The notes: a model not told the origin generated them from the sequence alone. Shown: positions 4,306 to 26,120, numbered from the stretch's first letter. The stretch is 64,000 nt of DNA from Candidatus Magasanikiibacteriota bacterium (GCA_014729395.1 WJJZ01000002.1:673-64672); one strand, 5' to 3'. Made by a program: numbers and translations.

Positions 4306-4326
4306 AAAAAAAAGGAGGAAAAAAAA

Positions 4327-5220: not shown

Positions 5221-5262
5221 ACACACAGGCACACATCCTAGACCCTGTGTGCCTCTACTTTT
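5221..5262 (+). terminator. Conserved-loop terminator hairpin T1 (GGCACACA-TCCTAGACCC-TGTGTGCC plus a T-rich tail)
   Basis: Member of a family of 5-6 hairpins. The loop TCCTAGACCCTG is invariant and the stems show compensatory changes. A conserved block TTCTGAAAGCG lies at 5285-5295. Confidence 0.65.
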
Positions 5263-5535
5263 AGAGATTGTAAATATTTATGATTTCTGAAAGCGTTTTG
5301 ATTTTGAAAAAATTGAAGCGTGTGATCGTTTTAAAAAAACCGTCTGACAAGGGCGGATGAAAATATAGAGAAAAGAGACCTTGGGCAGCCCTGCCCGGTT
5401 GGTTGTGTTACTAAACCTAAAAGTTATAGCGCACAGCAAGTCGATTTAGTTCGGCCGAGCAGGGTGGGTATGCCTCGACAGATGTCGGGGTAAGCGTTGC
5501 CGTAAGGCGCGCTACCGCTGCTTGAGGAGTCCAAG

Positions 5536-9507: not shown

Positions 9508-9635
9508 CAATTCAACCGGCCTGACCACAAGAAAACAGGGCCGGATAAAAAATAATATGTTTTCTGCGGAAAAACCGGCGGCCGTCCCAATAGGGAATAG
9601 AGCCGGTTTACATATATGTTCTTTTTTGGTAATTT

Positions 9636-9665
9636 TGGGGACAGGACTGAACATCCTAGTCCCCA
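9636..9665 (+). terminator. Variant of the conserved-loop hairpin (TGGGGA...ACATCCTAG-TCCCCA), T6
   Basis: It shares ATCCTAG with the T1-T5 loop. It lies 130 nt downstream of the helicase stop. At 9574-9612, an AAACCGGC/GCCGGTTT hairpin and a T-run precede it. Confidence 0.35.
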
Positions 9666-9737
9666 CCCTTCACTACTTATTTAAAATTTAGATAAGTGTT
9701 GAAGGGAAATTGGTTCCCTTCAGCAGAGGGAGGTGTC

Positions 9738-10016
9738 ATGAAAAGAGAGATAGTTGTCGCGGACAGGGACTTTGAAGTGTACCGACCGGAGCGCCGGTAC
9801 TACCGCCTAGATCGTAGGCACTGGGATCTGGAGCCTGGTACCCGGGTGACCGTGAAGGTGTGGCGGAAAAAAGGTCGCTACAAGATTCTGAGTGCGGTCG
9901 TTGTTGAATTTTTTTACTGGTGTCAGTGTGGGGTTTGTGACCCCACCTATTTCAAGGCCGCTATGCTGAACCGCCATTTCGACGGTAAGCTGAAGCGAAA
10001 GGATACAGACTATTAG
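9738..10016 (+). CDS. Hypothetical small protein, 92 aa
   Basis: GGGAGG lies 5 nt upstream of the ATG. GC-rich. Contains CQCGVCD. Confidence 0.4.
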   Translation: MKREIVVADRDFEVYRPERRYYRLDRRHWDLEPGTRVTVKVWRKKGRYKILSAVVVEFFYWCQCGVCDPTYFKAAMLNRHFDGKLKRKDTDY

Positions 10017-10026
10017 AAAACAAAAA

Positions 10027-10157
10027 AACCAAGGCCCGACTTGCCTGTCTGCTTTACAAAGTGGTGAAGAGATTGGCAGGTGTCGTGTTGCCTGAATCAA
10101 CAGGCAAGCTTGGGATTTTCCCAGGTGGAGCTACACTGGTTTTGAAAGGGGTAAGAG
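10027..10157 (+). promoter_or_regulatory. Type-1 leader element, diverged copy 2
   Basis: The same architecture is kept with compensatory stems: TTGCCTG-aatcaa-CAGGCAA and TGGGA-ttt-TCCCA. GAGCTACACTGGTTTT is conserved. An RBS and the ATG at 10158 follow. Confidence 0.65.
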
Positions 10158-10640
10158 ATGAAGAAAATCACGGACGCTTGTAACGAGCAGAGCTCAGTGG
10201 TCATCCAGGTGGCCGGAGGGTACATGAAGTGGTACCCGGCAGATGAGCAGAGGAGAGTGGAGTTCTACCTCCAGGGAATCGAAATCGATCCCCGGGTTCA
10301 GGCGGTGGATTTGCTCCTTGCCATGAACCAAGACGATGACATGGTGTTATGTAGCATCAATTGTCCGTCATTGGTACTTCCAATGGAAGTGATCGAGGAG
10401 AACGAACTCCTCATCGCCGATGGTGCTGTCTGGTTCAGGCGACCGTCCAGTGAAGGTGGTGAGCGCTACCCCGAGCCACCATCGAGATTGCGGTACACGG
10501 TCAAGGCACCTGGGGGATTTTCTCCGTGGGGTACGACCAACTGCCTCGAAGAGGCGCAGAGAATCCAACAAAAAGCTCTTGAGGAGGGTGTTGAGGACAT
10601 CGGTATCCGGGAAAATTCGAGTGGCAAATATCTAGGGTAA
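10158..10640 (+). CDS. Hypothetical protein, 160 aa
   Basis: Preceded by the type-1 leader and followed by T2. GC-rich. Confidence 0.5.
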   Translation: MKKITDACNEQSSVVIQVAGGYMKWYPADEQRRVEFYLQGIEIDPRVQAVDLLLAMNQDDDMVLCSINCPSLVLPMEVIEENELLIADGAVWFRRPSSEGGERYPEPPSRLRYTVKAPGGFSPWGTTNCLEEAQRIQQKALEEGVEDIGIRENSSGKYLG

Positions 10641-10669
10641 TGAATGTCGTTAGAAAAATTTTTAACCTC

Positions 10670-10712
10670 CGGGCACACATCCTAGACCCTGTGTGTCCAT
10701 TCTTTCAAAGAT
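10670..10712 (+). terminator. Conserved-loop terminator hairpin T2
   Basis: GGCACACA-TCCTAGACCC-TGTGTGTCC plus TTCTTTC. A TTGAAAGCAC block follows at about 10731. Confidence 0.65.
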
Positions 10713-10964: not shown

Positions 10965-12305
10965 ATGAGAGAAGATGTTACATTAAACAAATCAGCAGCA
11001 AGATTTAATTCTGATATTCCGGAAATTGATAATGACAGAGAAAACTATCTGCAGGAAGTAAAAAATAATAGGAAAATATTAATCAGAGATATGGCAGCTG
11101 ATGATGAACTTTCCGACATTAATCCGGACAAAATGCTAGCTAAACTTCAAACTGATTGGCTTGAGAAAATTAGCAAAGAACAAAAAGATTTGATAGCCGG
11201 TCATGTTGATTTGGATTTTATTGAAAAAAGCGTTTTTAGTTATGATTACGAAGAACTTGTTTTGCATGTTTTGCTTTTAAATCAACTGGCAAAGGAATTT
11301 TATATTATCAGACCGTTTTCATGGAAAAGTGAGGAACTTGGTTTGTTTGATGAAGAGCTTGAAGAATATAATGAAAAAAGAGAAGGGATTTCAAGTAAAT
11401 TTTATGAGATCAAAGAAATAGTATTGGCCAAAGCTTGTCAGCTGGCATCTTTTCAGGCCCCTGAATTTAGCTATGGTTTGGATGAGGATGGTGGTACTCC
11501 TATTTTATATTTTGATTTACCGGGTTATGGTCAGTTTAGTTTTCACATGCCAAATATTAACCAACCTTATAGATCTAATGAACATATTGCAAAACTCTAT
11601 AAAATTCTTGATATACCCAAGTATCATGGAGACTGGAAACAAAGAAATAAACGGCCTATATCTCGAATGACAACAGAAAAAGCCGAAGAAATAATTGCTG
11701 AAGGGGAACATATTGTGTCATTGGAAGATATTGAGCAGTATCTCAGTGAAAGAGAAGATATTAACCCCAAAAAAGCACACGATTTATATTTTAGGGCAAT
11801 GGCCCATCCGGATTTCCATAAAAATAAAGAGAAAATTGATGAATTACTTTTCAAACATGCGCCCACTGTTCCCGGAGCTTTGTCCCAAGCCTATCTAGAT
11901 GGTTTTGATTTGCCCTATAAGTATTATTCAAAAAAAATTAAGAAACGTGAACCATGGATGGATCATCTATATCCAACTTATCATGATATAATTTTTTATA
12001 TTGAAGAGTTAGATGCCTTGTTGGATTTTGCACAAAAAAATCAACCAAACGAAGAGTTAAAAGAGTCGACATTTTATGATCTTGAAGAATTGGAGCAACA
12101 AAAAACAAAAGTAGAGACTGATACGAATTTGGTGAAACAAAAATTAAACAGAATATTAAAACCGGCCTTACTTTTTTATCTGGAAGACGATAATCGTTAT
12201 GACGTCCCTCTGAGAAGAAAGATATACAACAAATTAGAAAAATTACTGGAAAGGTTTAATATGGAATTAGGCGATTACTTGACCGGGGATCAATTTGTCG
12301 GTTAA
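10965..12305 (+). CDS. Hypothetical acidic protein, 446 aa (AT-rich, host-like codon usage)
   Basis: Long uninterrupted ORF with no recognisable motifs. Confidence 0.6.
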   Translation: MREDVTLNKSAARFNSDIPEIDNDRENYLQEVKNNRKILIRDMAADDELSDINPDKMLAKLQTDWLEKISKEQKDLIAGHVDLDFIEKSVFSYDYEELVLHVLLLNQLAKEFYIIRPFSWKSEELGLFDEELEEYNEKREGISSKFYEIKEIVLAKACQLASFQAPEFSYGLDEDGGTPILYFDLPGYGQFSFHMPNINQPYRSNEHIAKLYKILDIPKYHGDWKQRNKRPISRMTTEKAEEIIAEGEHIVSLEDIEQYLSEREDINPKKAHDLYFRAMAHPDFHKNKEKIDELLFKHAPTVPGALSQAYLDGFDLPYKYYSKKIKKREPWMDHLYPTYHDIIFYIEELDALLDFAQKNQPNEELKESTFYDLEELEQQKTKVETDTNLVKQKLNRILKPALLFYLEDDNRYDVPLRRKIYNKLEKLLERFNMELGDYLTGDQFVG

Positions 12306-12331: not shown

Positions 12332-12661
12332 TTAGTTCAGCTTCAAATTATTTTTTCTAATAATCAAATCCAATTTTTTTTCAGTTTTGTCTTGTCTAAG
12401 AGCAAGAGCGGTATCATTTTTTACCAGAAAATCAACATGCTCAGTTATTTCAAGCCTAAGTTCATTTAAATCCCTTCTGGTAGCCATGGTATTGTGAATT
12501 TCATCAAGTTCTCGGTGAATTGACGCAATATCGTCTTTAGTAGCCATGTTCTTGATATCGTCTTTAGTAGCCATGTTTGCCAGGTCATCTTTGTTAGCGG
12601 CATTTTCACTCATAAATTGAATGATCTCATAGACGTCTTTGATTGTAGGATCTTTTTTCAT
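12332..12661 (-). CDS. Coiled-coil repeat protein, paralog 3 (about 109 aa; NMATKDDI repeats)
   Basis: N- and C-terminal blocks near-identical to paralog 2. An in-frame 27-bp tandem repeat lies at 12521-12575. The upstream promoter region is shared with the other copies. Confidence 0.7.
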   Translation of the reverse strand: MKKDPTIKDVYEIIQFMSENAANKDDLANMATKDDIKNMATKDDIASIHRELDEIHNTMATRRDLNELRLEITEHVDFLVKNDTALALRQDKTEKKLDLIIRKNNLKLN

Positions 12662-12744
12662 AATAAAATTATTTATCAAATAAATTATATTAATTATCAT
12701 ATCAAAAAGCAAATGAAGTTTTGATAAAAAAATTATAAAATTTA

Positions 12745-12787
12745 TGTGAGTAAAAAATTAAACAAACCCCATATAAGAGGTTTGTTT
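12745..12787 (-). terminator. recA intrinsic terminator (minus strand)
   Basis: AAACAAACC-ccatataaga-GGTTTGTTT, followed on the minus strand by a T-run. Confidence 0.6.
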
Positions 12788-12820: not shown

Positions 12821-13885
12821 TTATTTATCAACCGTTTCTTTTTCTCCAGGCTTACCCTTTTCCTCTTCAGGTGCTTCACCTCTTTCAACGGCTTCCCAAA
12901 TTTTCTTTTCAATTTTTTTCATCATTTTTGGGTGTTCTCTTAGAAATAGTTTTGCTTTTTCTCTACCAACGCCGAGTTTTTCTTCTCCAAAACTATATGT
13001 ATTACCCGATTTATTGACGACCTTGTGTTCAATTCCGGAATCAAGCAAATCACCTGATATGGAAATTCCTTCATTGTACATGATATCAAATACGGTTGTT
13101 CTAAATGGTGCAGCCACCTTGTTTTTTACCACTTTTACTTTTACGCGATTCCCAATTACCCGGTCACCTTGTTTTATTTGGGCAGAGCGACGGACTTCTA
13201 TCCTAACAGAAGAATAAAATTTCAGAGCATTACCACCGGTAGTGGTTTCGGGGTTGCCAAAAAACACCCCTATCTTATGTCTGGTTTGATTTATGAAGAC
13301 TACCGAAGTCTTGGTCTTACTGACAATGCCGGCCAGTTTTCGAAGAGCTTGACTCATAAGACGAGCTTGCAGGCCCATGTGAGAATCTCCCATCTCACCT
13401 TCGATTTCAGCCTTAGGGACAAGCGCAGCCACTGAATCTATCACGACCACATCCACAGCATTTGACCTAACCAGAGTTTCCAGGATTTCCAAGGCCTGTT
13501 CACCGGTGTCGGGTTGGGATATTAGCAAGTTATCTACATCCACACCGATTTTTCTGGCATAATCCGGATCAAGAGCATGCTCGGCATCAATAAAAGCGGC
13601 AATGCCATCTTTTTTTTGAACTTCTGCGATAATATGTTGGGCCAATGTGGTTTTACCACTGGATTCTGGGCCAAATACCTCAATAATTCTACCTCTTGGT
13701 ACACCTTTTACACCAAGGGCGATGTCAAGCGAGATTGAACCGGTAGAGACCGCTTCCACTTGCATGGCGCGGGCCTCGGAGAATTTCATAATTGAACCAT
13801 CACCGTATTTTTGTTTAATTTGACCAATGGCGGTTTCAGCCGCTTTAAATTTGGCTTTTTGTTCATCGGTTTGTTTTTTGGGCAT
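12821..13885 (-). CDS. recA: Recombinase RecA
   Basis: Walker [10 protein letters not shown] and canonical RecA blocks across 354 aa. Confidence 0.97.
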
Positions 13886-13955
13886 AGTGATCTTGAATTA
13901 ATGTATAATTTTTTATTATCTAAATTAGAGATTGGTGATTAGAGGTCAGAAATTA

Positions 13956-15323: not shown

Positions 15324-17768
15324 TTATTTTCTATACTCATCTTCTTCCTCATCCTCCTCATCAAAATCCTCGTCTTCCAAATCCTCGTCTTCATCGCCAT
15401 AACCAATTTTTTCTTCACTGTCATCATAGTCATCATCTTCAATATTATCATTGTTTTCTTCATAATCTTCTTCTTCGTCTTCGTAATCATTATCAAGGTT
15501 ATCATCATAATTATCGTTTTCTTCATCATCGCTAAATACGTTTTGTTCCCCTCCGGCTCCCATCGATGTTTCAATATCATCCAGTGTCATAAGCACTTCT
15601 CTGGGTTTTGACCCATCTTGTGGTCCGACCACACCGGCTTTTTCCAATTCATCCATAATGCGGGCAGCTCTATTATAACCTATTTTGAGTTTTCTTTGTA
15701 AATAGGATGTGCTACCTTTGCCGGCTTTGATACAAGCGATCTTTGCCTGTTCAAATAATTCATCACGATCATCATTACCACCAAACATATTTGTAGAACT
15801 TTCGTTATCACCGGTTACAATGGATTCGTCATATTCGGGTTTTTCATCCGCTTTCAGGTAACGAACAATTCTTTTTACTTCTTCTTCTGATATAAAGGAG
15901 GCCTGTATTCTTACCGGTTTGGAAAGTTCTGCGGTTTGAAAAAGCATATCTCCTCGACCCATTAGTTTTTCCGCACCCGGGGAATCCAAAATTGTCCTTG
16001 AGTCGGTAAGAGAGGCAACCGAAAAGGCGATTCTAGCCGGAATATTGGCTTTCATGAGTCCTGTTATTACGTCAACGCTCGGTCTTTGGGTAGCAACAAT
16101 CAAATGAATACCTACTGCTCTTGCCATTTGAGCTATGCGGATAATACCGGCTTCCACTTCACCTGCGGCTGTTGCCATTAGATCGGCCAATTCATCGATA
16201 ATAAAGACTATGTGCGGGAGTTTATCGTTTTTATATTTTTTGTTGTATGAGCTTATGTCGCGGCAACCCGCTTTGGCGAGTAAATCAAAACGTCTATCCA
16301 TTTCGCTAATCGTCCATTTTAATGCGTTTACGGTTTTTTGGGTGTTGGTGATTACGGGAGCAAGCAGATGGGGAATATTATTATACAAAGTCAACTCCAC
16401 TCTTTTTGGGTCAACCATGATAAGTCTTAGGGTTTCGGCTGTATTTTGATAAAGCAAACTCATCAAAATTGTATTGATGCAGACGGTTTTACCCGAACCG
16501 GTGGCTCCGGCAATCAAGAGGTGCGGCATTTTTGGCAAGTCGGCAAACCAAACTCGGCCGGCAACATCTTTTCCAAGAGCAATCATCATATCGTGGGCTC
16601 TGGTTTTAAAAGTCTTACTCTCGAGAATTTCTTTAAAAGAGACCATGGCCGCTTTTTGGTTTGGTACTTCAATTCCAACCAATGATTTACCCGGTATGGG
16701 TGCTTCTATTCTGATTGGATGAGCGGCCAAAGAAAGTGCCAGGTCATTGGAAAGCGAGGTAATCCTGGTCAGTTTAATGCCTTTGGAAGGTTTTAGCGAG
16801 TACTGGGTTACTGTTGGACCAACTCGAACGTCTCCCATACTTACATCAATATTAAATTGAGCCAAGGTATCTTTTATAATTTCAGCATTGGCTTTTATGT
16901 CACCGCTTGTAGGTTTCCCCCTTTTATCAGAGAGTAGTTTTACGGAAGGAATAGGTTTTATAATTATCTTTTTGGACCAGGGTCCTTCATCAACTTTGAC
17001 AGAAGCTACTTTTTGTCTAATCGGTGTCGAACTCTCATTTCTCTCAAATTCCTCTTCCATGTCTTCTTCGTCTTCATCCTCCTCCTCTTCTTCTTCATTG
17101 CGTTCATTTAGGCGTCTTGAAAAAAACCTTCTTTTTTTCATGGGTTCTTCTTCATCATATTCATATTCATCTTCATAATCAGTCGGTTCTTGGCTGTTTG
17201 TTTTTACAAATAAAGATTTTATCGTTTTATAAAAAGCCTTTCCAAGCCAACCCAGACCGGCAAAAAGTTTTTTGTTTATAATTACAAAATGCACGAGAGA
17301 TGTATTGAAGATAAAAAGGATACCAACAGCTACAAAACCGGCCAGGATTACAATTCCGGCAACATTACCCAAATAGTTCTTTATGGGCCAAGCCAGCATG
17401 CCAAATATACCGCCACCGTTGCCTTCGAGAGCCTCCCGCCACATTTCATTGGTTTCAAAACCAATATGCATGATACTGGAAGCAGCCAGAAAAAATAAAA
17501 AAGCTCCTACCAAATGGGTCGGCCTATATTTATAACGAATATCTTTTATCAGAAACCAAGCCAATATTACTATCACAAACGGGACTGCATAACGCATCTT
17601 ACCAAACAAGAAGCTTAGTATGTATTTATCGAGCATCACTCCGACTGCGCCGGCCATGTCAAAAAAAGATAAAGCTATTATAATAGCTGATATGATTAGT
17701 ACAATTGCAATTATACCGCGCGATAGCGTAGGATTAAGAATGCTATTTCGTTTTTTACGTTTAGCCAT
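15324..17768 (-). CDS. ftsK: DNA translocase FtsK/SpoIIIE with highly acidic C-terminal tail
   Basis: N-terminal TM helices, Walker A GATGSGKT, a gamma winged-helix domain STSYLQRKLKIGYNRAARIMDELE, and a DE-rich tail. Confidence 0.95.
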   Translation of the reverse strand: MAKRKKRNSILNPTLSRGIIAIVLIISAIIIALSFFDMAGAVGVMLDKYILSFLFGKMRYAVPFVIVILAWFLIKDIRYKYRPTHLVGAFLFFLAASSIMHIGFETNEMWREALEGNGGGIFGMLAWPIKNYLGNVAGIVILAGFVAVGILFIFNTSLVHFVIINKKLFAGLGWLGKAFYKTIKSLFVKTNSQEPTDYEDEYEYDEEEPMKKRRFFSRRLNERNEEEEEEDEDEEDMEEEFERNESSTPIRQKVASVKVDEGPWSKKIIIKPIPSVKLLSDKRGKPTSGDIKANAEIIKDTLAQFNIDVSMGDVRVGPTVTQYSLKPSKGIKLTRITSLSNDLALSLAAHPIRIEAPIPGKSLVGIEVPNQKAAMVSFKEILESKTFKTRAHDMMIALGKDVAGRVWFADLPKMPHLLIAGATGSGKTVCINTILMSLLYQNTAETLRLIMVDPKRVELTLYNNIPHLLAPVITNTQKTVNALKWTISEMDRRFDLLAKAGCRDISSYNKKYKNDKLPHIVFIIDELADLMATAAGEVEAGIIRIAQMARAVGIHLIVATQRPSVDVITGLMKANIPARIAFSVASLTDSRTILDSPGAEKLMGRGDMLFQTAELSKPVRIQASFISEEEVKRIVRYLKADEKPEYDESIVTGDNESSTNMFGGNDDRDELFEQAKIACIKAGKGSTSYLQRKLKIGYNRAARIMDELEKAGVVGPQDGSKPREVLMTLDDIETSMGAGGEQNVFSDDEENDNYDDNLDNDYEDEEEDYEENNDNIEDDDYDDSEEKIGYGDEDEDLEDEDFDEEDEEEDEYRK

Positions 17769-17984: not shown

Positions 17985-18752
17985 ATGCAACGTTGGAATA
18001 ACTATCTACAATCACTGGGTCTTTCGGAAAATGAAGCTAAAATTTATCTACACACTTTAAAAAAAGGCCAGCAGACTGTTCAACAGATTTCCACGGGAAC
18101 AAACTTGTCACGAGTAACAGTTTATGCGGCAATTGACACTCTAATCGAAATGGGGCTTATCAGCAGTGTGCAAAAAGGAAAAAGAAAATTGTTTTCCGCC
18201 GAACCGCCGGAGAGGATAGTGTCGGTTGCTGAGACAAAAGTAAAAAAAATGGAAAACATGATAAATGAGATGTCTTCTCACCTACAGGAATTAAAATTGG
18301 CTCAAAGCGGTGACAAACCGGTGGTTAAGTTTTTTGAAGGACCGGAGGCATACAGGATTGTTAACGAAGATTTAATTGAAACTAAACCAAAGGAAATATA
18401 TGAATTCGGGAACATTGAAGAGCTTCAGAGGATTTATAGTGGAGAGGATAAAAAAATATCTGAAGAAATTATAGATAAGTTAGATCAGTTTTTTAAAGGG
18501 TCTGATATTAAGAGAAGGAGTATCCATGTTGGTAGTCATGATCCAGAAAGATTTGTTGATAAAGGAGACGTTCAGAGAGTTTTTTTGGATAAGAATAAAT
18601 ATAAGTTTTACGGTGATATTTTTTTATATAAAAATAAAATATGGCTGTCCAGTTTTAGGGGCAAACAGATTTCAATTTTAATTGAAAGTGGATTACTATA
18701 TGATACCCTTAAAGCATTATTTGATATTTCTTGGCGTTCATTAAAAAAATAA
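17985..18752 (+). CDS. TrmB-family transcriptional regulator (HTH)
   Basis: N-terminal wHTH LSENEAKIYLHTLKKGQQTVQQIS...VTVYAAIDTLIEMGLI. A paralog lies at 51428-52192. Confidence 0.7.
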   Translation: MQRWNNYLQSLGLSENEAKIYLHTLKKGQQTVQQISTGTNLSRVTVYAAIDTLIEMGLISSVQKGKRKLFSAEPPERIVSVAETKVKKMENMINEMSSHLQELKLAQSGDKPVVKFFEGPEAYRIVNEDLIETKPKEIYEFGNIEELQRIYSGEDKKISEEIIDKLDQFFKGSDIKRRSIHVGSHDPERFVDKGDVQRVFLDKNKYKFYGDIFLYKNKIWLSSFRGKQISILIESGLLYDTLKALFDISWRSLKK

Positions 18753-18800
18753 GACCCAAGCCACATTGTAAAATATGACTCGGGTCTGTCGAACTGGCTA

Positions 18801-19250
18801 CTAGTCAGTCGGGATGGGTCCGCCGACCCAATCCTCTGCGCTTTCGCCTCGCTTTTTTAATAGTGTGCATATTCTCATACTCCCATTTCTCCTTCTCCTT
18901 TCGGGTCGGTTTAAAGACCCTTGCTTATTGAAACCCCATTGTTTTTGGGTTTCCACCAAAAAAGGATATTGGGAGTATGCGATCGATCCTCTCCTTGTGA
19001 GAGGTTTTTTTGGTCTATCACCATCCTTTTGTGGATATGGCAGAATGACCAAAAAAAATATTTTCGATCCTTGGTTGCCGAGATTGAAGTTCCCGGCAAA
19101 TTTGGCCACCGCACTTCGGTGGTTATGTTTCGCATCCTCCATTTTTATCCCTCCTTTTTGAAGGGGAAACCATATCTCATCTACCACATGCAAGATGAGA
19201 TTTACATATTTGGAAAACCGAGGGGTCTTTTCCGATCTTCCAAATAACAT
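18801..19250 (-). CDS. Hypothetical ORF of atypical composition (could be non-coding)
   Basis: Open frame only. Several frames are open on both strands here. No motif found. Confidence 0.25.
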   Translation of the reverse strand: MLFGRSEKTPRFSKYVNLILHVVDEIWFPLQKGGIKMEDAKHNHRSAVAKFAGNFNLGNQGSKIFFLVILPYPQKDGDRPKKPLTRRGSIAYSQYPFLVETQKQWGFNKQGSLNRPERRRRNGSMRICTLLKKRGESAEDWVGGPIPTD

Positions 19251-19401
19251 ATAATAATACCATAAAAAACTTAATTTGTCAAGGATAGCTTTACAATTTA
19301 AATTCCTAGTTTAAATATAAGTGTTTAATCTTGCTTTACATATAAATTTAGCTAAATTCAGCTAAATTTCATTATTTTACAAAAAAACAGTAAAGCAGCT
19401 C

Positions 19402-19430
19402 TTGACAAAATTATTAAAGTATGCTATTAT
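19402..19430 (+). promoter_or_regulatory. Near-consensus sigma70-type promoter (TTGACA-17-TATTAT)
   Basis: Exact -35 hexamer, 17-nt spacer, and a -10 matching 5 of 6 positions. Confidence 0.6.
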
Positions 19431-19434
19431 TATA

Positions 19435-19453
19435 TGTTCATCAAATATGAACA
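19435..19453 (+). promoter_or_regulatory. Operator-like perfect palindrome TGTTCAT-caaat-ATGAACA overlapping the predicted +1
   Basis: 7-bp perfect inverted repeat placed 5-8 nt after the -10. Confidence 0.5.
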
Positions 19454-19849
19454 GAATCATTCAAGAATTTATTTCTTGGAATCAGGCCCGGAAAAGCGAG
19501 CATACTCGATGGGACAAATTCATTTTCAGCCCAGAAAGAGCAGCTCAATATTTCGGCTCTTAAAAAACTGTAAATCCTGTAATTTTGACGCCTAAAAGGA
19601 TAAACAAGCTTTGGCAAGTTTATTCATGTCAATTCCTTACTTTATTTACGGTTTCTTGCCACCCGGGCTTTGTTCCAAGAAGTAATTATCATGCTTGTCG
19701 TGAATATGGAATTTATTATTACAATGTATATATTTTTCGTCTTGGCTTGCAGTACTCTAGTAAGAGTATAAAGAGCCCGATTACTGCCCCTTTCTTATTG
19801 ATTTGTTTTAAATGTCGATATGAATGGGACAGTAATTTCAACCAAAAAA

Positions 19850-19953
19850 AATCAAGGCCCGGTTCGCTGACATGCGGACGACGCGTCGCTTGAATCAACA
19901 AGCGATCCCGAAATTACTCGGGAGGAGCTACACTGGTTTTTAAAGGAGGAAAG
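19850..19953 (+). promoter_or_regulatory. Type-1 leader element, copy 3
   Basis: ATCAAGGCCCGG...GTCGCTTGAATCAACAAGCGATCCCGAAATTACTCGGGAGGAGCTACACTGGTTTTT then AAAGGAGGAAAG then ATG. Confidence 0.7.
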
Positions 19954-20070
19954 ATGGAAAGAACTAATATTCGGGACGAGACCGTGATGTTCGAAGAGAC
20001 CATCACCGGCGCTTGCCTCGTGGCAGGTGCATGGGGGGCGTTTCTCGCCCTCGTTTTCCTGGTCTTCTAG
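19954..20070 (+). CDS. Small ORF, 38 aa, with C-terminal hydrophobic helix
   Basis: AGGAGG RBS directly after the type-1 leader. It was absent from the ORF track because it is shorter than 60 aa. Confidence 0.4.
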   Translation: MERTNIRDETVMFEETITGACLVAGAWGAFLALVFLVF

Positions 20071-20236
20071 GCCGGGGGAACCTTGTCCCAAAAAACCCCC
20101 GACGGACTTTACATCCGATCGGGGACATTACTGAAATCCGGATTAGTCCGGGTTTGAGTAATGACACAGACAAATCGATCATCTGTTAACGGAGGGGTGA
20201 TCGGTTTTTTAATTGCCAAAACAAAAAGGAGAGGAC

Positions 20237-20581
20237 ATGAGCGAAAAAAGTTTTACCTGCCCAATCTGCAAGTTTTCGACAACGATCGAAAAAGCTTGGG
20301 TACCGAGCTTTGATTTCATCTCCAGTCAAACCGGTAAGAATCCGGTGAGGCTGGGGGATCTGAAGTGTTTCGCGGTTTGTCGTCGCTGTGCGGGAGACCT
20401 GCGTCGGGAACTGAAGATGAGATATTACCGCTTCAGTGATTCAGCGGAGCGGATTCGGAAAAGAGAAGTTAGACAGAGGGCGACACGGCGCAAGAAGCGC
20501 CAAAAACGTACCGCAACAAAGTTCAAGGATTTATTCTGTGCCAAGGATGGCAAGATAATTCCAATTCAGAAAACCTCATGA
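20237..20581 (+). CDS. Small zinc-ribbon protein with basic C-terminus (114 aa)
   Basis: RBS AAAAAGGAGAGGAC-ATG. The same RBS context serves the next gene. Contains CPICKF...C...CRRC. Confidence 0.55.
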   Translation: MSEKSFTCPICKFSTTIEKAWVPSFDFISSQTGKNPVRLGDLKCFAVCRRCAGDLRRELKMRYYRFSDSAERIRKREVRQRATRRKKRQKRTATKFKDLFCAKDGKIIPIQKTS

Positions 20582-20597
20582 CAAAAAAGGAGAGGAC

Positions 20598-20876
20598 ATG
20601 TCTAGGACATGGCGCAGCACCTATGCAAAGCCGGGGGTGTCAAAAAAAACCGGCCAGCGTAAACTCGACAATGATCGCCGACGGCAGCTAAATAAACGTT
20701 GCCCAGAGTGCGAGGCAAGGCAATGTATATGCCAAATATTGAGTCGGCAAAATGTTGATATAGACGTAATTAATGATTGTTGGTATTTTGATGGGTTTGA
20801 AGAGACGGCCGAAATTGATTATGAAATCGACTGGAGTCGATTCGATGAAATATTCGAATTCATAAAGAAAAGTTGA
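20598..20876 (+). CDS. Small Cys-rich protein (92 aa), paralogous to the N-terminus of 22404-22892
   Basis: MSRTWRS...NDRRRQLNKRCPECEARQCIC compares with MSRTRRW...NEKRRADRKWAVRNPSCPDCGRFRCEC. Confidence 0.55.
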   Translation: MSRTWRSTYAKPGVSKKTGQRKLDNDRRRQLNKRCPECEARQCICQILSRQNVDIDVINDCWYFDGFEETAEIDYEIDWSRFDEIFEFIKKS

Positions 20877-20892
20877 GAACGCGCAAATATTG

Positions 20893-20984
20893 GGGGGAGC
20901 TCTGAAATTATCAGGGCGCCTTTTCTTGGAGCGTTTCTATAAGCGAGCCAAGATAAGGCATAAACAAACAAAAAGGAGGAAAAA
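20893..20984 (+). promoter_or_regulatory. Type-2 leader element, copy 1
   Basis: GGGGGAGCTCTGAAATTATCAGGGCGCCTTTTCTTGGAGCGTTT...AAGGAGG-ATG. A second copy lies at 22910-23003. Confidence 0.55.
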
Positions 20985-21326
20985 ATGGAAGAAAAACGCA
21001 AGGCAGGTCTGGCACGTCTTAAAAAAGAATCGATGAAGAGATTGATTGATAAATTTGATGATGAGAAGTTTATCGAAAAAATTGCAAAGTCTTTGGCTTT
21101 TTCTCATCATAATAAATTGAGACAAAAGCAATATGGAAGAATAAGGTTTTTAAGAGGTGTTATTGATAAGCCAACCGAGCGAATTCGCCGATATAATAGG
21201 CATCGATTCCATTATTCAATATATGAGATAGATGCCAATGATATTGAATATTTCGGACGCCGATTATGGGCCGAATGTCTACGCTTGCGTTTAGCACGCA
21301 AGCAGGAATGGCTTGCAAAGCAGTGA
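20985..21326 (+). CDS. Hypothetical basic protein, 113 aa
   Basis: Preceded by the type-2 leader and followed by T3. Confidence 0.55.
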   Translation: MEEKRKAGLARLKKESMKRLIDKFDDEKFIEKIAKSLAFSHHNKLRQKQYGRIRFLRGVIDKPTERIRRYNRHRFHYSIYEIDANDIEYFGRRLWAECLRLRLARKQEWLAKQ

Positions 21327-21353
21327 TATAATAATTTCTAGGGATAAAACAAT

Positions 21354-21392
21354 TGGTATATATCCTAGACCCTGTATACTTTTTCTTTCAGA
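21354..21392 (+). terminator. Conserved-loop terminator hairpin T3
   Basis: GGTATATA-TCCTAGACCC-TGTATACT plus TTTTTCTTTC. An ATTCTGAAAGCAC block follows at 21411. Confidence 0.6.
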
Positions 21393-21458
21393 GCGTATGA
21401 ATTTATTCATGTATTCTGAAAGCACCATGAATGCATCGTGGTGTGGAAGAGAAACTCT

Positions 21459-21567
21459 AATACCGAGGCCCGGTTCGCTGATCGGCGAATGTCGCGTCGC
21501 TTGAATCAACAAGCGATCCCGAAATTACTCGGGAGGAGCTACACTGGTAAAAAGTTTTAGGAGGGTT
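21459..21567 (+). promoter_or_regulatory. Type-1 leader element, copy 4
   Basis: Same sequence as copy 3 up to CTACACTGG, then AGGAGGG RBS and ATG at 21568. Confidence 0.7.
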
Positions 21568-21933
21568 ATGAACAAGCATAATAACGAACAGTGCACATTA
21601 GAGGAAGTCGTGGTGGATTTTTTGGATGCATTTACAAAAATGACAGAGATAGATTTTTTGTTGGACTATCTATGGGCCGTAGTAGAGAAAAACGGCGATC
21701 AAAACCGCGATGAACCAATTATAATCAGTCTAAGCTGTGATAATTGGTTTGGTGAAGAAGTCTGCGATGAATATGATGGTATTGATTTGGCAAATGACAT
21801 ATTGGGATTATATTATTTAATTTCAACTCTGCCCAACAATATTTTAAAGCATTTTCCGCGTCATGTTGATCTGACAAAAGTTGCGGAAGAGAATTGGACG
21901 ACTTTGCATAAGTGGGCGATGTATTCAAGATGA
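21568..21933 (+). CDS. Hypothetical acidic protein, 121 aa
   Basis: Preceded by the type-1 leader. Confidence 0.55.
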   Translation: MNKHNNEQCTLEEVVVDFLDAFTKMTEIDFLLDYLWAVVEKNGDQNRDEPIIISLSCDNWFGEEVCDEYDGIDLANDILGLYYLISTLPNNILKHFPRHVDLTKVAEENWTTLHKWAMYSR

Positions 21934-22072
21934 AAATGCTTTGGTGAGAAATATTTTTTGGAGATTGGTTTTCAGAAACGTAATCAATCTCCGGTCTAAT
22001 TTGTCTTTATTATTTATAATGAAGACAAGGAGACATTTTCACAACTGTCCTTAACATAAAGGAGGATTCGCT

Positions 22073-22234
22073 ATGAATAAAGAAAAAATAAAAGAAATTC
22101 GGAGACTGCTTAGAAAAGCAAATGAAGAGAGAAGACTGGAACTCGAGAATTTTGATGATGATGCATTTGAAGTAAATGAATATGGTGAATTTGTTAATTT
22201 GGAAGAAGACGAATCGAGCAGTGAAGAGGATTGA
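22073..22234 (+). CDS. Small acidic ORF, 53 aa (MNKEKIKEIRRLLRKANEERRLELENFDDDAFEV...)
   Basis: AAGGAGG lies 7 nt upstream of the ATG. Preferred over the low-complexity antisense ORF at 22051..22299. T4 follows. Confidence 0.4.
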   Translation: MNKEKIKEIRRLLRKANEERRLELENFDDDAFEVNEYGEFVNLEEDESSSEED

Positions 22235-22294
22235 TTTGTTATGCGGGGGTTGATAATGACTACAATCCCGGCGTTATTTGTTGTGAGTTTTTCT

Positions 22295-22332
22295 GGCAAG
22301 TATTTCAGACCCTGCTTGCCTCTTCTTTCAAG
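22295..22332 (+). terminator. Conserved-loop terminator hairpin T4
   Basis: GGCAAG-tatttCAGACCCTG-CTTGCC plus TCTTCTTTC. Loop variant TTCAGACCCTG. Confidence 0.5.
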
Positions 22333-22403
22333 CTAATAATCATAAGTTTTTGATTTGAAAGAAGGATATCCGTTTTTTAAAAACTCAAAAAAAAGGAGTT
22401 GCC

Positions 22404-22892
22404 ATGAGTCGGACGAGAAGGTGGTCGAATGAGGACCACATAGACGCAATGGATGGGGTCAATCAAAAAAGATTGGCCAATGAAAAGCGCCGGGCAGACC
22501 GGAAATGGGCGGTCCGTAATCCGAGCTGTCCGGATTGCGGTCGGTTCCGCTGTGAATGTAATACAATTTATTTTATTGATGAGATGTTAATAAATAATTC
22601 TGATGATGAATTTCTGCAAAGGGAATTTTTAGCGACCGTATTTGCCGTGGTCCCGTTGCATGCGGGTCCTGATAATAGATCTGATGAAGATGTACCGGAT
22701 AATGTTATTTTTTTTGAGCATCATTTATTTAAATTGGATGATAGGCTGTTAAGTATGTTCGTCACTGACACGACCTGTCAATGTTGTGGCAGAGATGACT
22801 GCGGCTATTTTGTCGGCAATGGCAATTCCGCCTGTTTGGGTCTTTGGTTAAAAATAGACCTTCGAACAGGCGAGCTGATCACTGCGATGTGA
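22404..22892 (+). CDS. Cys-rich protein, 162 aa (two zinc-knuckle clusters)
   Basis: AAGGAG RBS. Contains CPDCGRFRCEC and CQCCGRDDCGYF. GC content along the ORF is mosaic. Confidence 0.55.
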   Translation: MSRTRRWSNEDHIDAMDGVNQKRLANEKRRADRKWAVRNPSCPDCGRFRCECNTIYFIDEMLINNSDDEFLQREFLATVFAVVPLHAGPDNRSDEDVPDNVIFFEHHLFKLDDRLLSMFVTDTTCQCCGRDDCGYFVGNGNSACLGLWLKIDLRTGELITAM

Positions 22893-22909
22893 TCAGCCAA
22901 ATGAAAATT

Positions 22910-23003
22910 TAGGGGGAGCTCTGAAATTATCAGGGCGCTTTTTCTTGGAGCGTTTTCAAAGCGAATCAAGACAAGGCACAGATAAACAAAACAAGGAGGA
23001 AGC
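22910..23003 (+). promoter_or_regulatory. Type-2 leader element, copy 2
   Basis: AGGGGGAGCTCTGAAATTATCAGGGCGCTTTTTCTTGGAGCGTTTT...CAAGGAGG-ATG. Confidence 0.55.
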
Positions 23004-23573
23004 ATGAGCGCAGAAACAGAAATCAGATTTTTTCGTATGAACAACGGGCAGATTTGGGCCGCAGTAGTCAGAGGGGGTATGACCTGCGACGAAGAATACG
23101 GCCGTTGTCTCAGTATTATTTTTGCTGGAAGTTACGACAAGGTCAAAGCATGGTACGGTCGACAGTCCAAAATGGACAAGTTTGATCCGGACTATGTTTG
23201 GACCGAGCATGGCGGGCGTCTTCCCAGCCAGTCAGAGCTTCAAGAAAAACCTGTTTCTTTTATCGGCAGCGAGGTCTGGCTAGAACTGGACAACGGCAAT
23301 CCATTTCCCGATTGTCGCGACCTCAAGCGGCCAATTTGGCGGGTTTTTGAGACTGACTTGGCCATCGAGTGTCGAGTTCTGGGGGAATCTCTTTACTTTG
23401 CGGAAGCTTGGAACTTGGCGCAAACGTATGCCATGCAGCAACCCGGAGATTGTAGGCTGCGGTTACCGGAGCGGTTTTACAGACCGGCTTCCGAAAAGCG
23501 TAGGGCGGAGACCTTGGAAGGACAGGAGATCGCCATGCCCAAGAATTTGCCGGATGGCTTGGACTGGGCGTAA
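23004..23573 (+). CDS. Hypothetical protein, 189 aa
   Basis: Preceded by the type-2 leader and followed by T5. Confidence 0.55.
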   Translation: MSAETEIRFFRMNNGQIWAAVVRGGMTCDEEYGRCLSIIFAGSYDKVKAWYGRQSKMDKFDPDYVWTEHGGRLPSQSELQEKPVSFIGSEVWLELDNGNPFPDCRDLKRPIWRVFETDLAIECRVLGESLYFAEAWNLAQTYAMQQPGDCRLRLPERFYRPASEKRRAETLEGQEIAMPKNLPDGLDWA

Positions 23574-23616
23574 AGGCCAATAAATTCTAGATAATAGCAA
23601 CATCTTTCAACCCACG

Positions 23617-23652
23617 ATAAGTATTCTAGACCCTGCTTATCAAATCTTTCTG
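23617..23652 (+). terminator. Conserved-loop terminator hairpin T5
   Basis: GATAAG-TATTCTAGACCCTG-CTTATC plus AAATCTTTC. Confidence 0.55.
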
Positions 23653-23872
23653 AGTTCAGGATATATATCATGAACTTTGAAGGGTCGTGAGTATTTTTTG
23701 ATATAAAAAATCATTGCAACTTAAATCATATTAATCAAGATGAAATCAAGGAAAATCTTCGGTTTGTAAAAAGATTCATACCAGGCAATGACTTGCTTGG
23801 TTGTTCTTTATAAAGGTTTGTGTCAATGCCAAGCAAGCCTGGTATGAGTTCTTTTGCTATAATAGGAGGGAT

Positions 23873-24022
23873 ATGAAAAAAGGATCAAAAAAACATTACA
23901 CCCGTCGTCGTCCTGCTCATCCGGATGACGCTCACACAAAATCAAAAAGATTCTTCAAAAGAAAAGGCCGTAAGCGTGTACGGCGGTATCTAAAGGAGAG
24001 TTTGAGAAAAAAAGGAGAATAA
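23873..24022 (+). CDS. Very basic small ORF, 49 aa
   Basis: AGGAGGG lies 4 nt upstream of the ATG. A long hairpin, CCAGGC..CTTGCTTGG / CCAAGCAAGCCTGG, lies at 23776-23850. Confidence 0.4.
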   Translation: MKKGSKKHYTRRRPAHPDDAHTKSKRFFKRKGRKRVRRYLKESLRKKGE

Positions 24023-24034
24023 AAATTCGGATAT

Positions 24035-24500
24035 GCTGATAATGCGGATTTACGGATAGTTTAATCCTAAATTCAAACATCATGTACTTTTATATCCGAT
24101 TTTTTTATACATACTTGTGTTTAGTATTCTTTTAATGGTAAGTTTTTTTATAGTGGATATTTTCTTTTTTTAGTTTTGCCTCCAAGGCATCACCATACTG
24201 TTTTTCATTACATAATCTGCCAAGCTCATTGTGAATTTTAAATAAAAGCCCCCTGATTTTGTAGGTTAAATTTTCGTAGATTAATTTATTCTCCATAACA
24301 ATACATATTTATTTAATTTAAGTTTTTTAAATTTTAACATAATATCAATGAACTAAAAGTAAATTTTTTGTATTAAAAAAATAAAAAAATAATAAAGTAT
24401 TTCTTGTAGCAAAATATTCATTATACGCATCAATAAAACTTTCTTATTTATTAATAATTTATTGAACTAAAATAATCCTATCCGAAAATCCGCATTATCC
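24035..24500. mobile_element. MITE-like element bounded by 23-bp inverted repeats, carrying a truncated GxxExxY-family ORF
   Basis: Left inverted repeat GATAATGCGGATTTACGGATAG (24038-24059). The right inverted repeat at 24478-24499 is its reverse complement with one mismatch. Confidence 0.5.
24132..24296 (-). pseudogene. GxxExxY-family protein fragment (54 aa; full-length members are about 125 aa)
   Basis: MENKLIYENLTYKIRGLLFKIHNELGRLCNEKQYGDALEAKL matches the N-terminal half of GxxExxY proteins (ENELTYKIIG..IEVHKELG). Confidence 0.45.
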
Positions 24501-24556
24501 CTGCCTGCCGGCAGGCAGGCGTATATCTGCATTATAGGCGTATATCTGCATTATAA
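24501..24556. repeat. 20-bp perfect palindrome CCTGCCTGCCGGCAGGCAGG followed by tandem 18-mer GGCGTATATCTGCATTATA x2
   Basis: Read directly from the sequence. Confidence 0.7.
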
Positions 24557-24589
24557 AAAACACCCCGGAATAAACCGGAGTGTTTTTTG
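24553..24589. terminator. Bidirectional intrinsic terminator
   Basis: AAAAAA-CACCCCGG-aataaa-CCGGAGTG-TTTTTT. Confidence 0.55.
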
Positions 24590-26120
24590 TTTCAGATACC
24601 TTCCTCGGCACAGTTTTAGAAAAAACCTCTTTGGGAGGACCAAAACAAATGTGTCGTTCGAGTATCTTATCCCGAAAATCGGGATTATGGTATATTTTAA
24701 ATTTCACCACCTCACAAAGATTTGCGAGTGGAAGGTTATAAGCGATTTTTTCTCTTACAATCTTCCGAATTTATACTATACTTTTAATTTGAAATTTTGA
24801 TGTTTCAGAAAAATATTATCTTTTCCAAACCCTCTACCGAGCCGCTTAGACACTAGGCCTAAGAAACTCAGTAGAAGGTAGGGCGATAGAGATTAAGGGG
24901 AATTTGGGGGGAAAATAATGAATCTTGGGTGGGTTCTGTTGCAGATTCTTTAGGTGAGATCTCTATCGCCCTGGGGTGGAATATATAATATTAATTCCCT
25001 CCTCACAAACTCTTATGGCTTTTATTAAGGATTTGTGAGGAAGGAGGGGATAGTCTTTTTGCACTTCGGGCCCAGTATAGGCCGTCAGTATGAGAACAAG
25101 ACTACCCCCTTTGACAAATAAACCGGTGGGACGATTTTTGAACCGTGAGCTAGCATCACAATTTTTTAATCGATTGGTTTATTTGTCCGGAAATTTTTTT
25201 ACCTTCTCATAGCAAGAATCTACAAGAAGATTTGTGCTAAACAACTTTTTGGGTAAAGTGTTTGAGCTTCTCTGCCATTAAACAGACAGAGCCTTAGGAT
25301 GGGTTCGCGCGTCGCGTTTTTTTTGCTTTGGCGTTAGCCAAAGCCGCTAGTGTAACTAATAAACACTTCGCTTCCCCTTCCGCGCCAAAATGACGCGTGT
25401 TGTGGCAGGAGACCGTTTTGAGCGGTACCTGCAGTTCACTAAAGAACAGATAATTATAGCACAAAAAAAGGATCTTGTCAAGTGTTTATAATAAGATTGA
25501 TTATTTTTTCAAATTTTTTTTAATTTTTTTTTGTGGATAAACTGTGAAATGCAGTTAATAAAATTCAATTTTTTAGCTAAATTTAGCACAAAATAATTAT
25601 CCCCCTTGACAAACATTTATCCACCTGTTCCATTTGACAAAACTCTAAAAATAGGTTATTATTGTAGCGTTAGCTAAATTATTGACAATATTGCCTTTGT
25701 TTAGCAAAATTTTCAGATAACAAAGCCAATGTTGTTAAATTTGACACTTTTTTAATCACGTCCGCTGTTAATTTGTACGAGTCCTTCCCCGATTAAAATC
25801 GGGTTTAGAAATCAAAAAAAGGCCGCAGTTAACCGCGATTACGTGCGCCCCAAAGGTAAAACTGAAAATCAATGTGTCTGAATCGGTTTTCTTGAGGAAC
25901 TTTCTCAAGAAGGAAAGACTTTTGGTGTGCTGGTAATAGGCAAACCATGCACAACAAAAAAAATAAAAATTAATTTCTGAAAAACTCTTATTTAAGAGTA
26001 ATTTTTGTATTGTAAATTAATTCATGAAGTAAATAGAGCTAGTAAACAGTAAAGAGAAATTGAGCAATATTAGTAAAAAACTGTTTACTGTTTACTATTC
26101 ACTATTTACTGTGTATATTT

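Follow-up and report, generated by a model that had tools for sequence, protein, structure and literature searches.

What kind of locus is a row of small, mostly unannotatable genes that lies just upstream of rpoB? The question is raised by a 64-kb chromosomal piece (hereafter the window, meaning the whole stretch of DNA that was analyzed) from a metagenome-assembled genome of Candidatus Magasanikbacteria (GCA_014729395.1, WJJZ01000002.1:673–64672; locus tags GF349_008xx; contig of 150,102 bp), in which nine small open reading frames (ORFs) form an array at 19.3–24.0 kb. Bacteria of the candidate phyla radiation have tiny genomes, yet a variable slot of small proteins is kept here. The array genes stand out from the remaining genes by their strong ribosome-binding sites, their raised GC content, and the elaborate RNA structures between them, which match no described family. 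The backbone has a GC content of ~35%, and two stretches are raised above it, namely the array and a region at ~1–10.7 kb that we call island A. Neighbors of the array are recA, ftsK, a TrmB-family regulator gene (17985–18752), rpoB, and rpoC, with ordinary housekeeping genes further on. A first-pass annotation had likened the array to integron cassettes or to the leading, anti-defense region of a mobile element. On balance, and with moderate confidence, we instead favor a vertically inherited, lineage-specific, operon-like array of small-protein genes, which is served by one conserved strong promoter and whose transcript is punctuated by structured RNA modules that also supply homology for gene turnover.

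Array genes and their orthologs

Nine small plus-strand ORFs encoding proteins of 38–189 amino acids were confirmed where the first-pass annotation had placed them, and they are labeled B1 to B9 in order of position. They are listed here with their promoter, a candidate operator, and their orthologs in GCA_964433095.1 (L003), the closest available relative (TrmB proteins 61% identical). This and the other related loci were reached via homologs of the TrmB-family protein. Selection is given as dN/dS (ratio of nonsynonymous to synonymous substitution rates) or as pN and pS (proportions of nonsynonymous and synonymous differences).

19346–19357, between two divergent promoters: TTTAGCTAAAT palindrome, candidate operator; box conserved in L003
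19402–19430, plus strand: array promoter, sigma-70-type TTGACA-17-TATTAT with extended −10 TG, 11/12 match; conserved with its surroundings at L003 3838–3866
19954–20070, plus strand: B1, 38 amino acids, hydrophobic C terminus; core; ortholog at L003 4372–4488, also 38 amino acids
20237–20581, plus strand: B2, 114 amino acids, CxxC...CxxC, basic tail; core; ortholog at L003 4779–5099, 32–35% identity, Cys residues kept
20598–20876, plus strand: B3, 92 amino acids, MSRTWR...CxxC...CxC; core; ortholog at L003 7328–7588, 41% identity, dN/dS 0.23
20985–21326, plus strand: B4, 113 amino acids, basic; genome-specific, with no counterpart in L003 to L011 and no family match
21568–21933, plus strand: B5, 121 amino acids, acidic; genome-specific
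22073–22234, plus strand: B6, 53 amino acids, acidic; genome-specific
22404–22892, plus strand: B7, 162 amino acids, Cys-rich ORFan with a B3-like N terminus; genome-specific
23004–23573, plus strand: B8, 189 amino acids, acidic; core; ortholog at L003 7697–8293, 41% identity, E = 2e-40; pN 0.39 versus pS 0.79
23873–24022, plus strand: B9, 49 amino acids, very basic; most conserved array gene; ortholog at L003 8554–8703, 88% identity, dN/dS 0.03

The gene order in L003 is that of the window: ftsK (minus strand), trmB (plus strand), a ~1.1-kb non-coding gap, a row of small plus-strand ORFs, and rpoB. Both divergent promoters and the TTTAGCTAAAT box recur in the L003 gap, and orthologs of B1, B2, B3, B8, and B9 follow in the same order. 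Purifying selection is evident from the low dN/dS of B9 and B3 and from pN values below pS for B1, B2, and B8. The first-pass annotation had itself named a conserved, syntenic orthologous region as the observation that would speak against mobile cargo. Such a region is largely what L003 contains, as five of the nine genes have orthologs there that evolve under purifying selection.

Gene content around this core differs between the two genomes. L003 has three ORFs between the B2 and B3 orthologs and two after the B9 ortholog that are lacking from the window, and two of the three between B2 and B3 (5892–6482 and 6641–7225) look like mutual paralogs. The cassette turnover between relatives that had been envisaged is thus seen in part, in that B4–B7 are absent from L003 and L003 has five ORFs of its own; the five core genes, however, stay syntenic. 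In more distant relatives, trmB and the gap with both promoters are kept, and the genes that follow the plus-strand promoter vary by genome (L004/L005, L006/L007, and L010/L011). For example, L006/L007 carry a 33-amino acid ORF homologous to a 26-amino acid ORF of L004/L005, followed by a DUF6847 gene and four small ORFs. Because the downstream gene content differs across relatives, the position after the TrmB-linked promoter behaves as a variable slot.

The translation signals of the array set it apart from the backbone, as had been noted earlier. All nine ORFs match the Shine-Dalgarno (SD) consensus AAGGAGGTGA over 6–7 nucleotides, and a GGAGG within 20 nucleotides upstream is found for eight of 13 genes in the two islands versus two of 27 backbone genes. 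Every one of these 13 island genes matches the SD over 4–7 nucleotides (11 of them over 6–7), whereas most backbone genes are without any SD match. The same contrast is seen in L003, where the array has SD sites and ftsK, trmB, and rpoB do not. This distribution suggests that, in an organism otherwise poor in SD sites, a limited group of accessory genes is set apart for initiation via the SD. The promoter ahead of the array is likewise as strong as had been reported, and matches inside the array are weak.

The mosaic GC content of B7, from which ongoing amelioration or recombination had been proposed, was reproduced (0.52, 0.55, 0.42, 0.28, 0.50, 0.28, 0.52, and 0.45 in consecutive 60-nucleotide bins). 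However, the orthologous L003 array is also richer in GC than the neighboring L003 trmB, and it too carries SD sites. Both features are thus long-standing at this locus and do not indicate recent import.

The proteins themselves offered few clues. PHROGs, PADLOC, Pfam, and NCBIfam contain no family that matches any of the nine ORFs, and sequence searches of the PDB with the array proteins, including B9, gave no match. Single-sequence AlphaFold2 models were too poor for a fold search (mean predicted local distance difference test scores of 40.7 for B5 and 39.9 for B8). The acidic B5 and B6, which had been suggested as DNA mimics, are still candidates for such a fold. CxxC-type motifs occur in B2, B3, B7, and an island A ORF that begins at 4950, and the L003 orthologs of B2 and B3 retain the cysteines at these positions. 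The N-terminal block MSRT(W/R)R...CP(E/D)C...C(I/E)C that had been described as common to B3 and B7 was recovered by BLASTP (31% over 35 amino acids, E = 0.002 in a tiny database). As for the proposed zinc-ribbon family, the Cys motifs are present, but no curated zinc-ribbon model in Pfam reaches its threshold, and the label denotes the motifs only. An exhaustive HMMER search with B7 over 1.84 billion representatives returned B7 itself plus one marginal match (E = 9e-4). Note that we claim ORFan status for B7 only, because B7 alone was searched in this exhaustive manner; a word-index protein search proved insensitive, as a B8 query found only itself and missed the 41% identical L003 ortholog. 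B1 apparently was not called in the NCBI annotation, judging from the numbering of the locus tags.

Structured RNA modules between the genes

The first-pass annotation had assigned a repeated leader of type 1 or type 2 to every ORF of the array. Repeated leaders do exist, but only four of the nine ORFs have them: type 1 precedes the ORFs at 19954 and 21568 (and, in island A, those at 4950 and 10158), and type 2 precedes those at 20985 and 23004. These leaders are structured RNAs on the sense strand and, together with a 3′ element that had not been named earlier, they constitute three families whose stems show compensatory changes. The window copies are listed with the two singular leaders of the array.

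19431–19846, plus strand: long 5′ leader, with a conserved 22-bp long-range helix (19469–19491 with 19663–19685) followed by a conserved CAUGCUUGUCGUG hairpin
19847–19942, plus strand: type-1 cloverleaf before B1, 111.5 bits
21458–21553, plus strand: type-1 cloverleaf before B5, 107.6 bits
4843–4937, plus strand: type-1 module in island A, before the Cys-rich ORF 4950–5183, 108.3 bits
10024–10145, plus strand: type-1 module in island A, before ORF 10158–10640, 94.7 bits; most divergent copy, with the most compensatory changes
20885–20984, plus strand: type-2 spacer copy 1, terminator-like hairpin GCUCUGAAAUUAUCAGGGC and another hairpin ahead of the B4 SD; identity to copy 2, 92%
22904–23003, plus strand: type-2 spacer copy 2, before B8; counterpart of the single L003 spacer between the B3 and B8 orthologs (22989–23061 matches L003 7683–7754)
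21329–21425, plus strand: 3′ element after B4, loop AUCCUAGACCC, 84.7 bits
22271–22365, plus strand: 3′ element after B6, variant loop UAUUUCAGACCC, 77 bits
23578–23686, plus strand: 3′ element after B8; orthologous copy after the B8 ortholog at L003 8297–8402
5187–5296, plus strand: 3′ element in island A, after ORF 4950–5183, 77.1 bits
10643–10740, plus strand: 3′ element in island A, after ORF 10158–10640, 75.5 bits
23768–23872, plus strand: B9 leader, long hairpin ACCAGGC...UUGCUUGG / CCAAGCAAGCCUGGU read directly from the sequence; 78% DNA identity to L003 8446–8553

Type 1 is a ~95-nucleotide four-helix junction, or cloverleaf, whose four copies always end 5–12 nucleotides before the SD of an unrelated ORF. 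Across the four copies, 98.4% of cells are paired and nine of the 31 pairs have changed on both sides. Shuffled controls never did as well (0 of 500), and slid controls were 33–45% paired. The motif evidently folds on the sense strand, because it contains an invariant G-U pair and because the reverse strand scores 9 bits versus 108. Type 2 comprises two hairpins, both of which are kept in the single L003 spacer. The 3′ element consists of a UCUAGG box, a hairpin A with a AUCCUAGACCC-type loop containing CUAG, and a long AU-rich hairpin B. Its copies, five in the window and three in L003, always start within ~50 nucleotides after a stop codon, and those of L003 include one after each of the L003-specific ORFs 5335–5736 and 5892–6482. 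For hairpin A, 95.8% of cells are paired and five of nine pairs are double-changed among the eight copies of the two genomes. The UCUAGG box may plausibly pair with the loop, with weak support (82.6% paired, one compensatory change). In the long 5′ leader, alignment with L003 3867–4290 indicates that the long-range helix has been kept by compensatory changes.

None of these structures corresponds to an RNA family that we could recognize. Rfam 15 gave no gathering-score match anywhere in the window, the 5′ leader included, and only chance-level matches (E<5–10) within 18600–24300; in the relatives' loci there was no Rfam match besides tRNAs. ARAGORN predicted no tRNA or tmRNA in the window. Identities as tRNA-like, Y-RNA, RNase P, or ribozyme structures were considered for the cloverleaf and for two long RNAs (the 5′ leader and a minus-strand stretch described below), and they were unsupported by ARAGORN and Rfam. 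A strict exact pattern, TGAATCAAC-N-GGAGCTACACTGG, gave one chance match in genome and metagenome contigs (a Roseivirgaceae coding gene) and is too strict to establish absence elsewhere. In IMG/VR, the type-1 pattern had 0 matches and the 3′-element pattern 27, none of which was confirmed by the covariance model. The locus thus offers at least three new structured RNA motifs for study.

The loops carry signatures of their own. In hairpin A, the five window loops all carry GACCC and the L003 loops carry GAUUC or GACAC, and a GAAAUUA loop is common to helix P4 of type 1 and the type-2 hairpin in the window only. Such genome-specific loops hint at concerted evolution or at a coevolving trans-acting factor. 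A pairing of the CUAG loop with neighboring non-coding RNA was considered and set aside: the minus-strand stretch of both genomes contains GGGUCUU, but the L003 loops do not covary with it by eye.

A separate observation comes from L006, in which a structured GC-rich intergenic region is repeated before unrelated ORFs (13480–13920 and 15336–15790), with CUAG boxes and recurring hairpins. A 113-nucleotide block of this repeat is 92% identical, and the surrounding ~400 nucleotides are similar by eye. L006 has intergenic modules of its own, and therefore repeated RNA modules between small genes are not unique to the genome studied here.

Gene turnover, a possible mechanism, and rival explanations

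The clearest example of turnover is B4–B7, which form a 2,019-bp block between the two 92% identical type-2 spacers. In L003, the B3 ortholog is directly followed by the B8 ortholog with a single type-2 spacer between them, and neither L003 nor any other fetched locus has a counterpart of B4–B7. From this arrangement we infer that the block probably entered by recombination at the spacer, through either a single crossover with a spacer-bearing molecule or an unequal exchange. A simple recent tandem duplication of B3 would not account for it, because B7 resembles B3 only at the level of protein motifs and the first codons differ. The block is a concrete example of ORFan gain beside conserved genes.

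In the mechanism that we propose, the array would be expressed as one transcription unit, or a few, from the promoter at 19402–19430, with control probably exerted via the palindromic box between the divergent promoters. As cis-acting elements, the modules would most likely punctuate the polycistronic RNA. Downstream of an ORF, the type-2 hairpin and the 3′ element could terminate part of the transcripts, direct processing, or shield the 3′ end. The cloverleaf, ahead of the next ORF, would form a stable 5′ structure that serves as an insulator and as 5′ protection and leaves the strong SD unpaired. As an outcome, each small ORF would be independently translatable in a genome that hardly uses SD sites. 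The modules may also provide homology for gain, loss, and shuffling, because copies that are 81–92% identical adjoin unrelated ORFs in two islands, with B4–B7 as an example.

Several points weigh against this interpretation. The modules are known from two genomes, and their covariation was derived from four (type 1), eight (3′ element), and three (type 2) copies, many of which are paralogous. Type 1 was not detected before the B1 ortholog of L003 and is therefore not essential for B1. Compared with L003, the two spacer copies differ from each other in a mosaic fashion, a pattern that favors neither route of entry for B4–B7. Operon status, processing, and termination are all deduced from the sequence. 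Moreover, the paralogous modules could be so similar because they spread selfishly in recent times, and not because they are functional.

This last point leads to an explanation that we consider unlikely, in which the modules are selfish intergenic repeats of the repetitive extragenic palindromic (REP), enterobacterial repetitive intergenic consensus (ERIC), or miniature inverted-repeat transposable element (MITE) type that spread in the lineage and are tolerated between genes, with their closeness to SD sites and stop codons being incidental. The flanking ORFs are indeed unrelated despite the identity of the copies, the loop signatures fit recent intragenomic spread or homogenization, the outer helix of type 1 (AAAACCA/UGGUUUU) resembles short terminal inverted repeats, and a weak Y1/IS200-like ORF is present at 49628–50248. 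Yet each of the 13 module copies reads in the same direction as the genes beside it and has a set placement with respect to stop and start codons, no further copy was found in the 64-kb backbone even with filters off, and the stems are kept by compensatory changes, also between orthologous copies of the two genomes. No target-site duplications are visible at the copies. The surveyed sequence (64 kb plus 13 kb) likewise lacks the dispersal in both orientations, and the duplications or REP-associated tyrosine transposase (RAYT), that REP or MITE elements would show; a RAYT/REP relationship for the Y1-like gene was rejected, as modules do not flank it. We find it rather unlikely that the cloverleaf is a trans-regulated leader, that is, one that binds a ligand, a small RNA, or a protein (e.g. 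the basic B2 or B9, or a regulon partner of the TrmB-like regulator) and coordinates a regulon made up of accessory small genes from the two islands. Its covariation-supported structure is what a riboswitch-type leader should have, and the conserved junction contains an invariant unpaired AAUCAA loop, a GCUACAC internal loop, and a AAGGCCCG segment, immediately 5′ of the translation start in four genes of two islands, with the GAAAUUA loop common to P4 and the type-2 hairpin of this genome. However, the proteins encoded after the four copies are unrelated to one another, an uncommon situation for a riboswitch, the predicted folds show no alternative pairing by which the SD would be hidden or a terminator formed, no match exists among 4227 Rfam families, and the type 1 motif is absent from L003. 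We regard as doubtful, and offer as speculation, the more ambitious idea that the cloverleaf-SD 5′ module and the CUAG-loop 3′ module are the two ends of an unrecognized, integrase-independent gene-cassette system of Candidatus Magasanikbacteria. Such a system would consist of portable RNA-level expression units that are recognized by a lineage-specific trans factor and that allow ORFans to be captured, to be expressed in an SD-dependent manner in an otherwise SD-poor genome, and to be exchanged at a TrmB-controlled hot spot, and the adjacent, likewise unannotated ~500-nucleotide structured RNA would be part of it.

That the array is mobile cargo, either integron-like cassettes of the kind found in clusters of attC sites lacking integron-integrases (CALINs) or the early, leading, or anti-defense region of an integrated plasmid, integrative and conjugative element, or phage, strikes us as very unlikely. 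Small ORFs on one strand, most of them unannotatable and served by one promoter, are the arrangement expected of promoterless integron cassettes, the content of the array differs between related genomes, direct repeats flank B4–B7 as expected from single-crossover integration, and the modules are common to a GC-rich island with defense-type genes (mCpol and a large DEAH helicase). Nevertheless, the core genes and promoter are syntenic between FtsK-TrmB and rpoB in L003, where the raised GC and the SD sites are also found and hence are ancestral to the locus. As had been stated earlier, no integrase was found: no tested ORF of the window has an integrase or recombinase match in Pfam, and none is a relaxase or rep gene. 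A scan of 19300–24100 on both strands for attC sites, which are imperfect palindromes of 57–141 nucleotides between complementary cores (RYYYAAC/GTTRRRY), used a regular expression plus complementarity and gave 0 candidates (shuffled sequences gave a mean of 0.28). The repeats take the shape of a cloverleaf or a pair of hairpins, not that of the single long bulged hairpin of an attC site. Nor did sequence similarity favor the anti-defense and plasmid-like proposals. Searches by tblastn with B2–B8 against INPHARED phages and PLSDB plasmids found nothing, as was the case with PHROGs and PADLOC, and IMG/VR scans with profiles of B8 and B9 recovered no relatives. No oriT, relaxase, rep, or phage genes link the locus to a plasmid or phage; its neighbors are the genes named at the outset, and its position is conserved in L003. 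The identification of the array as an integron or as a plasmid or phage anti-defense island is thus mostly not supported, and mobile readings are unlikely for the core genes; for B4–B7, the integron, leading-region, and anti-defense readings are weakly possible. A tempting misreading is corrected in this way, as small Cys-rich ORFs lined up with repeats between them need not be an integron or an anti-defense island.

Finally, B1 and its long structured leader could be a module resembling a type I toxin-antitoxin system with a small hydrophobic peptide, the rest of the array being an unrelated neighbor, and this we judge to be highly improbable. The size of B1, its hydrophobic C-terminal half (length and polarity are conserved in L003), the ~500-nucleotide structured 5′ leader with its long-range helix, and a terminator-like hairpin that follows B1 in both genomes are compatible with it. 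However, no antisense promoter or RNA was identified opposite B1, its SD is not sequestered in the predicted folds, and the promoter is shared with the downstream array; the repeated modules would also be left unexplained. The punctuated, vertically inherited array remains our preferred interpretation of the locus.

Surrounding sequences and comparison with known systems

The gap upstream of the array holds a second transcription unit, which diverges from it.

18745–19282, minus strand: divergent transcription unit with promoter 19282–19254 (11/12), a ~500-nucleotide structured non-coding stretch, and terminator 18787–18752 (16-bp stem)

This stretch folds far better than shuffled versions (minimum free energy z = −9.6 in the window) and has no Rfam match. 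Counterparts lie beside TrmB genes at L003 3282–3665, L004 10800–11250, L006 10800–11275, L008 10810–11075, and L010 10875–11190. In each fetched relative, a minus-strand TTGACA-17-TGnTAnnnT promoter downstream of the TrmB gene reads back through a GC-rich, gene-less 230–500 nucleotides toward the trmB terminator. The folding z-scores on the minus strand are −4 to −7 in five of six genomes, and most copies end with an SD and a tiny ORF (MGGR*, MGGQ*, MGAG*, or MGC*). Alignment of the window and L003 copies was too divergent to be informative. The TrmB-linked stretch is a candidate new non-coding RNA on the basis of these sequence features.

The motif TAGCTAAAW, which makes up the palindrome TTTAGCTAAAT at 19346 and 25571, occurs seven times in the window versus 2.1 expected. 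Its sites (19346–19357, 25571–25582, 25671–25679, 51361–51369, and 11465–11473) include positions between the divergent promoters, upstream of rpoB, and ahead of a second TrmB paralog (51428–52192), and it may be the operator of TrmB-family regulators. The ~2 kb upstream of rpoB (24800–25860; L003 9895–10944) has no convincing ORF and is GC-rich and hairpin-rich, with blocks conserved in L003 at 24826–24878 and 25568–25857. This region may represent further non-coding RNA or regulatory DNA. Between it and the array, 24132–24296 (minus strand) encodes a 54-amino acid fragment of a PD-(D/E)XK nuclease (PDDEXK_3), an apparent gene remnant whose L003 counterpart is a 169-amino acid ORF. Nearby, at 24495–24560, are a 20-nucleotide perfect palindrome CCTGCCTGCCGGCAGGCAGG and a tandem GCGTATATCTGCATTATA repeat.

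Island A (1000–10700) reaches 60–64% GC, against 35% for the genome. It carries genes for an mCpol-domain protein (Pfam E = 2e-14; weak PADLOC match to CARF_HEPN_mCpol), a GNAT protein, and a 1323-amino acid DEAH/HA2 helicase, along with small ORFs. Three direct copies (69–87% identical) of an AT-rich ~0.4–0.5-kb segment at 6–370, 3606–4108, and 12347–12765 bracket the halves of the island, an arrangement that resembles the spacer duplication around B4–B7. The copies at 3606–4108 and 12347–12765 carry paralogous minus-strand coiled-coil ORFs (3594–4055 and 12332–12712). A 228-nucleotide direct repeat (93% identical; 2257–2484 and 3274–3501) flanks the mCpol-domain gene (2574–3080). We considered it as a template/variable pair of a diversity-generating retroelement and rejected this assignment, as the mismatches are not adenine-specific. 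The ORF at 49628–50248 has a weak IS200-like Y1 transposase domain (E = 1.5e-6); the ORF is interrupted by a tandem duplication (GCAATGCAACGTCGCCACAACAA repeated) and is bounded by terminator-like hairpins.

In L004 (10751–14166) and L005 (1740–5060), the promoter pair is followed by the 26-amino acid ORF, ~0.6 kb of structured non-coding sequence, a TROVE/Ro60 gene, and small ORFs. A Y-RNA-like partner may be encoded near this Ro60 gene, although there is no Rfam match to Y RNA or YrlA there. These loci invite comparison with Rsr/Ro60-Y RNA loci (YrlA/YrlB), as the TrmB-linked promoter region of L004/L005 leads into a Ro60 gene and structured non-coding sequence, and the plus-strand leader of the window is likewise closed by a long helix that joins its 5′ and 3′ parts. 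Unlike Rsr/Ro60 loci, however, neither the window nor L003 has a Ro60 gene, and the Rfam models for Y RNA and YrlA matched none of the loci.

Among described gene arrays, the closest are sedentary chromosomal integrons and CALINs, such as the Vibrio superintegron with its homogeneous Vibrio cholerae repeat (VCR) attC sites. In both cases, small same-strand ORFans follow one upstream promoter, repeats of ~100 nucleotides separate unrelated ORFs, content varies, and a block lies between direct repeats. Unlike integrons, the array is without IntI in the 64-kb window, without attI, and without the R″-L″/L′-R′ imperfect palindrome. Moreover, not every junction has a repeat, three repeat families occupy fixed 5′ or 3′ positions, and five genes are syntenic in a distant relative.

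The modules resemble REP sequences and bacterial interspersed mosaic elements (BIME), ERIC/intergenic repeat units (IRU), Correia elements, and BOX/RUP repeats in being short, structured, and intergenic or 3′-proximal in operons. Repeats of these kinds affect mRNA stability, termination, and processing. Unlike them, the modules are strictly in the sense orientation, are confined to two accessory islands, and show no association with RAYT or transposase genes and no visible target-site duplications, and one family is a cloverleaf fused to the translation initiation region. That family recalls tRNA-like punctuation of polycistronic RNAs, in which a cloverleaf-shaped junction likewise lies between cistrons; type 1, however, has no tRNA match by ARAGORN or Rfam and no T-loop or D-loop consensus, and processing at this site is a prediction. 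It is also similar to the 5′ stabilizer or insulator stem-loops of the ompA, ermC, and aprE leaders, where, as here, a structure stands directly 5′ of an exposed SD.

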